Shown here one piece after another: positions 32,150-59,074 of a stretch of DNA of 64,000 bases. A program made the translations under genes and the position numbers. The notes under the pieces are model-generated. The model was not told the DNA's origin. It searched no databases and saw only the letters and a program-made list of their open reading frames with translations. Positions within the stretch are counted from its first letter, which is position 1, and each line of letters starts with the position of its first letter. Origin of the DNA: Lama guanicoe (lineage: Eukaryota); contig MU053810.1 in the NCBI GenBank assembly GCA_013239625.1, forward strand, positions 6,730,122-6,794,121. The letters run 5' to 3'.

Positions 32150-32785
32150 CTCCCCATTATGGTTTATTACAGGATAGTGAATATAGCTCCCAGTGCTCTA
32201 CAGTAGAAGCTTGTTGTTTTATCTATTTTCCCTATAGTAGTTTGTATCTGCTAATCCAAGACTCCTAATTTATCCCTCCCCCATCTCCTTTTCCCTTTGG
32301 CGACCGTAAGTTCATTTTCTATGTCTGTGAGTCTGTTTGTTTTGTAAATAAGTTCATTTGTATCATGTTTTAGAGTCACACAGTAAGTGATAGCATATGA
32401 TACATATGTTTTTCTGTTTCTGGCTTACTTCACTTAGTATGATAATCTCTAGGTCCATCCATGTTGCTGCAAATGGCATTATTTATTCCTTTTTATGGCT
32501 GAGTAGTATTCCATTATATATATACCACATCTTCTTTATCCAGTCAGCTACAGATGGACATTTGGGTTATTTCCATGTCTTGGCTATTGTAAATAGTGCT
32601 GCTGTGAACATTGGGGTGCATGTACCTTTTTGAATTAGAGTTTTCTCTGGATATATGCCTGGGAGTGGGATTGCTGGATAACACAGTATCTCTATTTTTA
32701 GTTTTTTAAGGAACCTCCATAGTGTTTTCCATAGTGGCCGCACTGATTTACATTCCCACCAACAGTGTAGGAGGAGTCCCTTTTT
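32150..32785 (-). mobile_element. Antisense L1 3' region fragment
   Basis: tctggcttacttcacttagtatgataatctctaggtccatccatgttgctgcaaatggcatt...tttacattcccaccaacagtg. Confidence 0.92.
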
Positions 32786-55760: not shown

Positions 55761-56146
55761 TTTTAAATGGTGCCTTGTTTGCATATAGGAGTGAAGTGGG
55801 GATGGGTGAAGAAAGAAAAGGTGACTGAAGGGAGCAGTTTAAGGAAGTCTCGCCCCGGGAACCTGAAATTTAAGTTGTGACCTGAAGGATAATGAAAAGT
55901 TAAACAGGGAACTTTGTTGTGGTGGTGAGGAACAGGAAGCCCTGAAGGGTCAAAAGAAATATAAAAGCAAAGGCTATTTTCTATCTCTCTTTTTTTTCTT
56001 TTTCCTTCTTTCTTTCTCTTTTTCCCAAAGAGGGAGCGGCCTTTGCAGTGGCAGTTTGGGGTGGGCACTGCCGAGGTGAGGGGGCCTCGCCTTCTGCACG
56101 CTGGTAGATGCCTAGACAGCCAGGTTACTTCAGACTGCTCTTTACA

Positions 56147-56397
56147 AATAACGTTCTCCAGGAGCATCCATGTTGCTGTAAATGGCATTGTGTTGTCGGT
56201 TTTTGTGGCTGGGTAGTGTTCCATTGTATGGATGTGCCACGTCTTCTTTGTCCAGTCATCTGTTGATGGACGTTTGGGCTGTTTCCATGTCTTGGCTATT
56301 GTGGGTGGTGCTGCTGTGAACGTTGGGGTGTGGGTGTCATTCTGGAGTGGGGTTCCTTCTGGATGTGTGCCCAGGAGCGGGATTCCTGGGTCATATG
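56147..56397 (-). mobile_element. Antisense L1 3'-region segment embedded in the retrocopy 5' UTR (exonised, A>G hyper-mutated)
   Basis: Homologous to the in-window L1 at ~32440-32685. It has no TSD or poly(A/T) tail of its own. It starts immediately after the cacttAG position seen in the homologues and ends at tcatatg. Confidence 0.9.
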
Positions 56398-56412
56398 ATT
56401 GATTGATCCATT

Positions 56413-57177
56413 ATGGATGGAGGGGATGATGGTAACCTTGTCATCAAAAAGAGGTTTGTGTCTGAGGCAGAGCTAGATGAACGGTGCAAAAGGAGGCAAG
56501 AAGAATGGGAGAAAGTTCGGAAACCTGAAGATCCTGAAGAATGCCCAGGGGAGGTTTATGACCCTTGGTCTCTGTATGAAAAGCTACAGGAACAGAAAGA
56601 CAGGAAGCAGCAGGAGTATGAGGAACAGTTCAAATTCAAAAACACGGTAAGAGGCTTAGATGAAGATGAGACCAACTTCCTTGATGAGGTTTCTTGGCAG
56701 CAGGAACTAATAGAAAAGCAGCGAAGAGAGGAAGAACTGAAAGAACTGAAGGAATACAGAAGTAATCTCAAAAAGGTTGGAATTTCTCCAGAAAACAAGA
56801 AAGAAGTGGAGAAGAAAGTGACTGTGAAACCCAAAGAAACCAAGAACAAGTTCTCGCAGGCAAAGCTGTTGGCAGGAGCTGTGAAGCCTAAGAGCTCAGA
56901 GAGTGGCAACAGTGTGAAAAGACTGAAATCGGACCCTGACCCAGATGACAAGAATCAAGAAGCCCCACCCTGCATGTCTCCTGGAAGCACATCCCTGAGC
57001 GGTCCCTCCATCCACTGCCCCTCCGCCGCTGTCTGCATTGGCATCCTCCCAGGCTTGGGCGCCTACTCCGGGAGCAGCGACTCTGAGTCCAGCTCAGACA
57101 GCGAGGGTACCATCAACGCCACCGGCAAGATCGTCTCCTCCATCTTCCGAACCAACACCTTCCTCGAGGGCCCCTAG
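56413..57177 (+). CDS. PSME3IP1: Intact 254-aa ORF of the PSME3IP1 (PIP30/NIP30/FAM192A) retrocopy; expression unknown
   Basis: [24 protein letters not shown]...[27 protein letters not shown]...[47 protein letters not shown]. Same length as the mammalian protein as I recall it, with no stops or frameshifts. Confidence 0.85.
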
Positions 57178-59074
57178 CTCCTCTGTCCTTACCTCAAGGA
57201 GCCCCGCCCCAAAAGTAGACCGGACAGTTTATTTATTCTGCCTCCAGGCTCTTCTGCCCTCAGAAAACTCCTTTCCCTGCTCCCTGTGCACACCGTGATG
57301 TTTTTAACCTCATCTAAAAATGTGCGAGAATCTACTTGTGGCCCAAATTGTTTGGTTTCTCTTTCCAACCTGTACAGAGGCCCAGACCTGTCCCATGGCC
57401 TCTGTCCTCACTGATGAAATAGGGTGAGCAGAAATTCCCCTAAAAATGCTGTGGGAAGATAGGCACTAGCTGGCTTAGAAAGGGTTTGGGTTTGGTTGCT
57501 TTCTTTTTTGTTTTTTTGTTTGTTTGTTTGTTTGTTTTTCTTTCCCAACATCAGAAAGAAGCAAGGGCAGTTATTGGACAGATATTATTTAAACTTTCTA
57601 TTCTAGATGAATGCGCTGTTTGGTTATACTGCGTTGTAGAGCATGTGGCGGGAGAGAAGGACCCAAGGGATGGAATGGCGCGTTGCCCTGGAACTAACTG
57701 ATTCTTGATGTTCTGTGACTAAGTAAAGATTCTAAACCACAAAAAACCCCCACAAAACAAAACAAAACAAAAACAAACAAAGAAAACAACAACAAAACAA
57801 CAAAAAAAGAAAAGTTAAACAGGTGAAGAGGATAGGTGCAGGTAGAGGTGAGGAGGAGGGAGCAACCATGATTCAAAAGTAACCATGATTCAAACAGGCA
57901 CTGTAGTGTGAAACCCTTGAACTCTTTGAAAATGCCATACCTCATTCAGTGCTCCATAATATCTATGAATTTAATTTGTAAATGGCTTCTCCAAATACGT
58001 CCTCTCAGTCGTTTTAAAATTCCTACCAGCACTCTATACATTATGAAACCTTATCACTGCCATCTACTTAGTGACTGAAGAAAATCTCGATGTGTGGAAT
58101 GTACACAAAAATAGAAGCAAAGGCTAAATATATACAATGACAACCACCAGTTGCCAAAAGTTGTTTCCAACCATAATCCAGATAAAATTTCCTGAGTTTT
58201 GAGAAGCTACCTTAAACAAATTTCTTTAGCAACTCTTCTCATTTGAGATACTGCTAATTTCTAGATAGACAGAGATTTCAATAGATAATTACCTGGTTTT
58301 ATTTTAGAAAAGCCACTTGGGAGGAAAATTTTGTTTTGTTTCATTATTTTTCCTTTTAACTAGGATGTCACGCCAACAAAGGTTCCTGTCTTCTTTTCTC
58401 CTCTCAATTCAAAGAAATTCTACACATTTTGTTATACATCGAAATCAATTTGTGGCAATATTGCTTTCTTAAAAAAACCAACCAAACAAACAAAAAACCC
58501 CTCATAGCTAAGGAAATGAAGCTTAGAGTAAAACTACAGCCCCCCCCCAGATTTAACATACTTAGTGTGCCTACACTATAGCTTAAAATAACTTCCAAAG
58601 AGTTTTGAGCCATTGAAATTAGCGCACCCTAAAAGGAATCGAGCTGTCAACAGAAAACCCATAGGAGAAAATCCATCTTAGGTGAGTCCCTCTTTTGTAG
58701 TTACCTAATAGCCCCATAAATTAAATAAGGACATTCTTTCCTGTCTGGATCACATGTATTACATAATTACTTTCTTTCCAAGCAAGTGAAAGAAGCAAGA
58801 AGGAAGAGCTATATAAAGATTACAATTAATAATGACAGGCAGTTTTCCACCAGATGAAGTCTGTACTGTGAGTTGCATAATCAGTACCTCAGCAAATTTT
58901 GTTCTCTCCCCAAAAGTCATGGCTAGGCAGAGTCAGAGACAGGACTTCTTTTCCTTTATTTTCTTTTGCTAAAGATTACATATATACATATGCATTAAAG
59001 AAATGCAGAAAATATAAATCAGCAATTAGATGAAAATAAAAACCACACGCATAACGGAGAAGAGACCTCACCAC

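Follow-up and report, generated by a model that had tools for sequence, protein, structure and literature searches.

APOBEC3 deaminases act on cDNA and leave G>A changes on the RNA-sense strand. Footprints of this kind were reportedly described in endogenous retroelements by Carmi et al. in 2011 and by Knisbacher and Levanon in 2015-2016. The locus described here, a retrocopied exon carrying a dense cluster of A>G differences, resembles them in that a deaminase mark would have been fixed through retrotransposition in the germline, and in that the mismatches form a one-directional cluster when the sequence is set against its relatives. Its chemistry and substrate are, however, the opposite ones: the changes are A>G, and G>A was found at only 1 of 61 G.

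At the RNA level, clusters of ADAR hyper-editing that lie in double-stranded RNA of repeat origin have been described from RNA-seq data by Porath et al. 2014 (PMC4365171), and the present cluster shares with them a dense, strand-specific series of A>G changes within a repeat and the scarcity of G upstream of the changed sites. It differs from these RNA-seq clusters in being carried by genomic DNA and in representing one molecule, and also in that no complementary partner was found within reach and no enrichment of G downstream of the changed sites was observed. A further precedent is provided by the A>G hypermutated genomes of avian retroviruses (RAV-1 and another), whose attribution to ADAR is cited in PMC8586724. 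In those genomes, as is proposed for the present locus, edited RNA was reverse-transcribed, inosine becoming G in the DNA. Unlike the avian retroviruses as presented in that source, our case would involve a cellular mRNA as template and the L1 enzyme, and the product is a heritable processed retrocopy in which a single transposon-derived exon is affected.

The origin of such an exon also has well-documented counterparts, since cassette exons using the splice sites of antisense L1 elements are known from mouse cDNAs, and 43 of the 52 L1 exonisation events reported by Zemojtel et al. 2007 were antisense (PMC2176070). As in these cases, an intronic antisense L1 would have supplied GT/AG sites and become a cassette exon. 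Unlike the mouse cases set out in that report, the exonised form survives here in a retrocopy alone, and the assembled parental gene lacks the donor L1. A full-text literature search, with most subscription journals outside its scope, found no published case of a cellular mRNA that had been hyper-edited by ADAR and then kept in the germline as a retrocopy. A finding of this type is expected in principle and has rarely, if ever, been demonstrated so cleanly.

A processed retrocopy of a PSME3IP1-like gene

The window, i.e., the whole stretch of 64,000 nucleotides that was analysed, corresponds to G000:C1724:6730122-6794121 in a 2.05-Gb assembly of 55231 contigs. Positions 55909-57808 of this window are a processed retrocopy, made by L1, of a PSME3IP1-like gene. 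The retrocopy consists of eight abutting blocks with seven intronless joints; the parental exons span about 31 kb on the minus strand of another contig, C7236, and their identity to the retrocopy, exon by exon, is 91-100%. The features considered in this work are the following:

32440-32685, + strand: antisense L1 within the window, used as comparator by the first-pass annotation; an older, more diverged copy
55894-55908, no strand: 5' target-site duplication, GAAAAGTTAAACAGG, an identical 15-mer being present at 57809-57823
55909-56107, + strand: retrocopied exon 1 (5' UTR) of the PSME3IP1-like parent, 91.7% identity over 204 bases to G000:C7236:997056-996853
56108-56146, + strand: cassette exon of 39 nt, matching C7236:993291-993253, with one T>C at 56145
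56147-56397, + strand: cassette exon of 251 nt, antisense to the C-terminal end of L1 ORF2, with 24 A>G changes, the first at 56153 and the last at 56367
56398-56401, + strand: ATTG, four extra bases that tandemly repeat the first four bases of the ATG exon and are absent from the parent
56402-57740, + strand: remaining retrocopied exons, with the ATG exon from 56402, the coding sequence at 56413-57177, and the 3' UTR to 57740
57741-57808, + strand: degenerate poly(A) tail, an A-rich run starting at the end of the homology with the parental last exon
57809-57823, no strand: 3' target-site duplication, identical to 55894-55908

The hallmarks of a retrocopy are present. A 14-mer within the target-site duplication occurs only twice in the window, both times at the duplication sites, and the A-rich run starts about 15 nt 3' of a signal-like hexamer, AGTAAA. 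The target consensus of the L1-type endonuclease is TTTT/AA on the bottom strand; the duplication starts with GAAAAG after TAAT, and the bottom strand thus reads ...CTTTTC/ATTA, which is T-rich and differs from the exact consensus. The coding sequence at 56413-57177 is still open, with 254 codons and a stop codon, and diverges from the parent by 2-5%. Several of its differences from the parent are CpG-type changes at the DNA level. The ATTG at 56398-56401 looks like the product of slippage after insertion, as judged from its repetition of the adjoining bases.

A second retrocopy fragment of the same PSME3IP1-like gene, much older (68-72% identity), was found at G000:C51468:1-946. Its homology starts at ...caggtag/atcgatcc, and exon 1 appears to be joined straight to the ATG exon, which looks like an isoform without both cassette exons.

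An exon spliced from an antisense L1

The joints of the retrocopy were compared with the exon borders of the parental gene. Parental exon 1 ends with ...GCTGGTAG, immediately followed by gtgagt, and this end corresponds to position 56107. In the parent, the 39-nt exon is preceded by ...ttttttag and followed by gtaagt, and the ATG exon is preceded by ...tttttgtag. The L1 homology fills 56147-56397 exactly, between the end of the 39-nt exon (56146) and the ATG exon (56402), with ATTG intervening. The limits that the first-pass annotation gave for the segment are exact: the antisense-L1 segment, bounded by parental exon junctions, begins and ends on these very bases.

Antisense splice sites are present at the same borders in genomic L1 copies. 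TTAG stands directly before the equivalent stretch in 9 of the 9 aligned copies, and the stretch is then followed by GTAAGT in 8 of them and by GTGAGT in 1. Positions 56147-56397 are therefore a spliced antisense-L1 cassette exon and not a retained intron. The segment had initially been read as a piece of the first intron; it is instead a 251-nt exon that follows the 39-nt cassette exon.

The exon matches thousands of genomic L1 copies; 40 of 4654 first-look candidates were scored, and the L1 matches are 87-89% identical to it. In one of these copies (L005), the sense-strand frame matched residues 1106-1236 of human L1 ORF2p, of about 1275 residues, in a search of PDB sequences (E 2e-63), which places the exon in antisense to the final portion of ORF2. 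A Pfam search with the L1 open reading frame piece returned a chance-level match alone (E 0.55). The ORF2 stop codon adjoins the antisense acceptor.

Two other origins of the L1 segment were considered and rejected. Given an L1 that runs antisense to the mRNA and has splice sites as its borders, a switch of the reverse transcriptase to an L1 RNA template is ruled out, and a later insertion at the DNA level is not credible. A metagenome scan with 37 bases spanning the junction between the 39-nt exon and the L1 exon gave 0 matches.

Mismatch spectrum and sequence context of the L1 exon

When compared to its 29 closest L1 copies, the exon shows 28 differences, namely 24 A>G, 1 T>C, 1 G>A and 2 C>T, with 0 transversions; comparison with the 9 closest genomic copies likewise gave 28 differences, 24 of them A>G. 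The changed fraction is 24/56 (43%) for A, 1/90 for T, 1/61 for G, and 2/44 for C (A versus T, binomial p = 1.6e-9). Each of the 29 copies was also scored against the others as a control, and showed 2-13 differences with 0-4 A>G. The comparators had been chosen by similarity to the query, 40 of the 4654 candidates having been scored; choosing the best matches to a G-rich query works against the detection of A>G. The bases of the L1 exon were taken as they stand in the assembly sequence.

The support varied from site to site. At 16 of the 24 changed sites, A is present in at least 27 of the 29 copies, and at 7 sites it is present in 23-26; position 56241 is variable (A in 12 copies, C in 8, T in 7, and a gap in 2). 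Eight of the 24 sites are less uniform, being variable or having G in 3 to 6 of the 29 L1 sequences. G at these weaker sites could represent variants of the source copy, which gives a conservative count of 16 A>G. The first-pass annotation had counted about 16 such changes, in agreement with this stricter figure, against a total of 24 when the closest L1 copies are used. Its comparator, the L1 at 32440-32685, differs from the exon at 49 positions, including 25 A>G and 1 G>A; the age and divergence of this copy inflate the other mismatch classes. Of the 24 changed sites, 19 have A in this copy, 2 have G, and 3 are not aligned. The first-pass observation is confirmed, and it is stronger than first described.

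We considered whether the Gs were already present in the genomic source L1 copy or its sub-lineage, so that no RNA editing took place. The assembled parental locus offers no source copy with which the exon could be compared, and some L1 copies carry G, or are variable, at 8 of the 24 sites. However, no L1 copy in the assembly was more than 89% identical to the exon among the 40 scored of the 4654 candidates, 89% being the next best genomic match after the exon itself, and none of these copies resembled the G-rich form. The nearest L1 subfamily, as represented by the 29 copies, carries A and not G at the changed sites, at 16 of them in at least 27 copies, and even the older L1 in the window has A at 19 of 24. 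Moreover, if the L1's own RNA had been edited before its insertion, A>G on the L1 sense strand would appear here as T>C, which was seen at only 1 of 90 T. This explanation ranks first among the rivals, and we nevertheless consider it very unlikely.

Apart from the A>G changes, the exon diverges from its subfamily at only 4 of 251 positions. For comparison, the L1 copies each show 2-13 differences from their own majority, and divergence between retrocopy and parent is 4.6%. The source L1 was therefore young when it was copied, and its subfamily was probably active when the retrocopy formed. At 56331-56332, all 29 L1 copies have CA and the retrocopy has TG, as would be expected if a new CpG had been created by A>G and had later decayed. 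Four other A>G sites (56153, 56241, 56272, and 56322) still form a CpG.

The rest of the retrocopy shows a different spectrum. Against the parental exons, 72 mismatches were found over 1551 aligned bases (4.6%), and the largest single source of them is 14 CpG transitions, in line with the ordinary CpG-type changes that had been noted in the adjacent coding sequence. There are also 16 apparent T>C, many of them at CpGs that were kept in the retrocopy and lost in the parent. Outside the L1 exon, A>G was found at 8 of 424 A sites, versus 24 of 56 within it (Fisher p = 1.3e-18), which bears out the bias that the first-pass reading had proposed, and neither flanking exon, of 39 nt upstream and of 139 nt (the ATG exon) downstream, contains any A>G. 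The A>G cluster is thus strand-specific, made up of transitions only, and bounded by RNA splice joints.

These features weigh on a second alternative, namely a process acting on the DNA after insertion, such as GC-biased gene conversion, a strand asymmetry associated with transcription, or error-prone synthesis at WA motifs. A>G at TA and AA motifs resembles errors of the polymerase-eta type, and the A>G changes have enriched the region in GC. Gene conversion bias would, however, raise T>C equally, and 24 A>G were observed versus 1 T>C; errors of the polymerase-eta type include A>T and A>C, but 0 transversions were observed; and a bias linked to transcription would hit the retrocopy throughout, yet outside the exon no more than 8 of 424 A are changed. 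A DNA process at the new locus would also have no reason to respect the RNA splice joints at which the cluster ends. Such a process is, in our opinion, highly improbable and comes second among the rivals.

A third alternative places the changes at the time of insertion, either through misincorporation by the reverse transcriptase under a skewed nucleotide pool or through ADAR acting on the RNA:DNA hybrid. Hypermutation driven by nucleotide pools is known in retroviruses, and ADAR is able to deaminate DNA in hybrids; a preprint also deals with ADAR1 as a DNA mutator. Either process would nevertheless act on the entire cDNA and not on one 251-nt exon, and a dA deaminated in the first cDNA strand would show up as T>C on the mRNA strand, again seen at 1 of 90 T. 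We give this explanation a very slim chance, below that of a process acting after insertion.

An artefact of assembly or sequencing is the least probable of the rivals. The assembly is fragmented, with its 55231 contigs, but no common sequencing error yields 24 one-directional transitions within 251 bases with clean flanks. In addition, four sequencing-run entries from two studies contain half or more of the 31-mers sampled from 55909-56700, a share that exceeds what the parental exons alone should supply, these counts being for the whole segment and not by part. All other entries in the run search hold a smaller share of the words of this segment than the four best.

The bases that precede the changed A were then considered. 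A change was found at 14 of 18 A preceded by T (78%), 3 of 9 preceded by A (33%), 5 of 18 preceded by C (28%), and 2 of 10 preceded by G (20%), so that 17 of the 24 changed A have a 5' T or A, as had been remarked from the sequence at the outset. TA differs from the other contexts (Fisher p = 4e-4), and depletion of a 5' G taken alone is not significant (2/10 versus 22/46, p = 0.16). On long perfect duplexes, human ADAR1 and ADAR2 are reported to follow the 5'-neighbour order U>A>C>G (PMC3113232), and the order in the L1 exon is the ADAR order given in that source. The context also agrees with the depletion of upstream G described for hyper-edited RNA-seq reads by Porath et al. 2014 (PMC4365171), the 5' G depletion here having a p value of 0.16. 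At the 3' side, the enrichment of G expected for ADAR was absent in this small set of sites, which counts against the ADAR reading (next base of changed A: T 13, G 5, A 5, C 1; of unchanged A: T 17, G 7, A 4, C 4).

In the L1 exon, about 43% of A are changed, and the A>G changes span 56153-56367, i.e., nearly its entire length; this is the outcome of promiscuous editing on a long, near-perfect duplex. Self-folding of the exon as the source of double-stranded RNA was rejected: the unedited equivalent folds no better than shuffled sequences (z -0.26, with 73 of 200 shuffles as good), and the present, G-rich sequence gave z -1.36.

The data are best explained by ADAR having hyper-edited a single transcript which L1 then reverse-transcribed, an explanation that we judge probable; all rivals together are unlikely to account for the locus. 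The proposal that one hyper-edited PSME3IP1-like transcript was copied by the L1 machinery, put forward in the first-pass annotation, is supported: two of the refuting outcomes named there did not occur, since the nearest L1 subfamily has A at the changed sites and A>G is in excess within the exon alone, and the retrocopy hallmarks are present.

Source L1, duplex partner, and proposed course of events

The parental locus was searched for the L1 from which the exon would derive. No match to the L1 stretch was found in C7236:985900-1000800, a region that includes the 7-kb intron and contains no N (BLASTN, word size 7, E <= 1e-3). No source L1 lies between the flanking parental exons, and the search of 45 kb of this locus detected, apart from two old fragments of about 67-74% identity, no match to the stretch; both fragments are located in a 3' intron, in the same antisense orientation. 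The exon was accordingly compared with 9 and then with 29 subfamily copies in place of a parental intronic L1. Likewise, an inverted, sense-oriented young L1, which had been suggested as a pairing partner, is absent from these 45 kb. The lack of both source and partner counts against the ADAR reading.

Two other candidates were rejected. Parental intron 1 contains an old sense-oriented L1 fragment of about 75% identity at C7236:995766-995938, whose homology to young L1 begins beside the stretch equivalent to the exon, at the border between the ORF2 stop and the 3' UTR. It was discarded as source or partner, for it covers the 3' UTR and not the stretch itself, lies upstream of the 39-nt exon, and is too old. 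The fragment shows no complementarity to the exon. Three of the seven best L1 matches (L002, L004, and L007) are found within 50 kb of each other at G000:C5737:15015639-15064654, an arrangement that may reflect a local duplication containing the L1. These three were rejected as source since they are on a different contig, outside the PSME3IP1-like locus on C7236.

The simplest account is that the source was a young, probably polymorphic L1 insertion that has since been lost or is missing from the assembled haplotype. The duplex partner may then have been an inverted copy within this lost insertion, the insertion's own sense transcript, or an L1 mRNA acting in trans.

We propose the following course of events for ADAR hyper-editing. 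In the PSME3IP1-like gene, a young antisense L1 would have occupied the intron that separates the 39-nt exon from the ATG exon, and its antisense splice sites (TTAG before and GTAAGT after the stretch) would have led to the splicing of 251 nt into a minor mRNA isoform. The L1-derived stretch would have paired with a complementary L1 sequence, supplied by a sense L1 RNA or by an inverted copy within the pre-mRNA itself, and ADAR, the presumed agent, would have deaminated about 43% of the adenosines in it. The L1 reverse transcriptase would then have read inosine as G, and insertion at a TTTT-like target would have produced the target-site duplication and the poly(A) tail. The editing pattern of one molecule would thereby have been fixed in germline DNA.

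Data from cell culture bear on this model in two ways. ADAR1 is reported to be bound to the L1 ribonucleoprotein particle (PMC5224506). According to the same source, no editing was seen in more than 2.5 kb of an L1 reporter RNA, and the effect of ADAR1 in restricting L1 was independent of editing; we count this lack of editing in the reporter against the ADAR reading. A bolder version of the model is that the antisense-L1 exon paired in trans with sense L1 mRNA, and that this pairing both drew in ADAR and tethered the rare isoform to the L1 particle, where ORF2p copied it in place of its own RNA. We regard this version as unlikely. If it were true, hyper-edited repeat exons would mark a piggy-back route by which cellular mRNAs containing antisense L1 are preferentially retrocopied, and A>G scars would trace, across the genome, the RNA:RNA contacts that took place in the ancestral germline.

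RNA editing as a rule leaves no trace in heredity. Under ADAR hyper-editing, the present retrocopy shows a route by which it can reach the germline, with about two dozen substitutions introduced in one step. The retrocopy would also be a single-molecule record from an ancestral germ cell or early embryo, both of an isoform that existed and of the editing level of one molecule, and the isoform thus recorded contains an exonised young L1 that is now absent from the parental gene. The locus provides a simple, searchable signature: on the mRNA strand, a repeat-derived exon or UTR, and no other part, carries a cluster made up only of A>G when it is compared with the relatives of the repeat. Applied to all retrocopies in any genome, it could indicate how frequently editing enters DNA and whether antisense-L1 content favours retrocopying.

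Finally, the parental intron just 3' of the 39-nt exon (minus strand, G000:C7236 at about 993250-993000) contains a tandem duplication of about 125 bp. This duplication repeats the donor sequence (tatagtaagtattctaaatatgag...), and the GTAAGT donor context is thus present twice.
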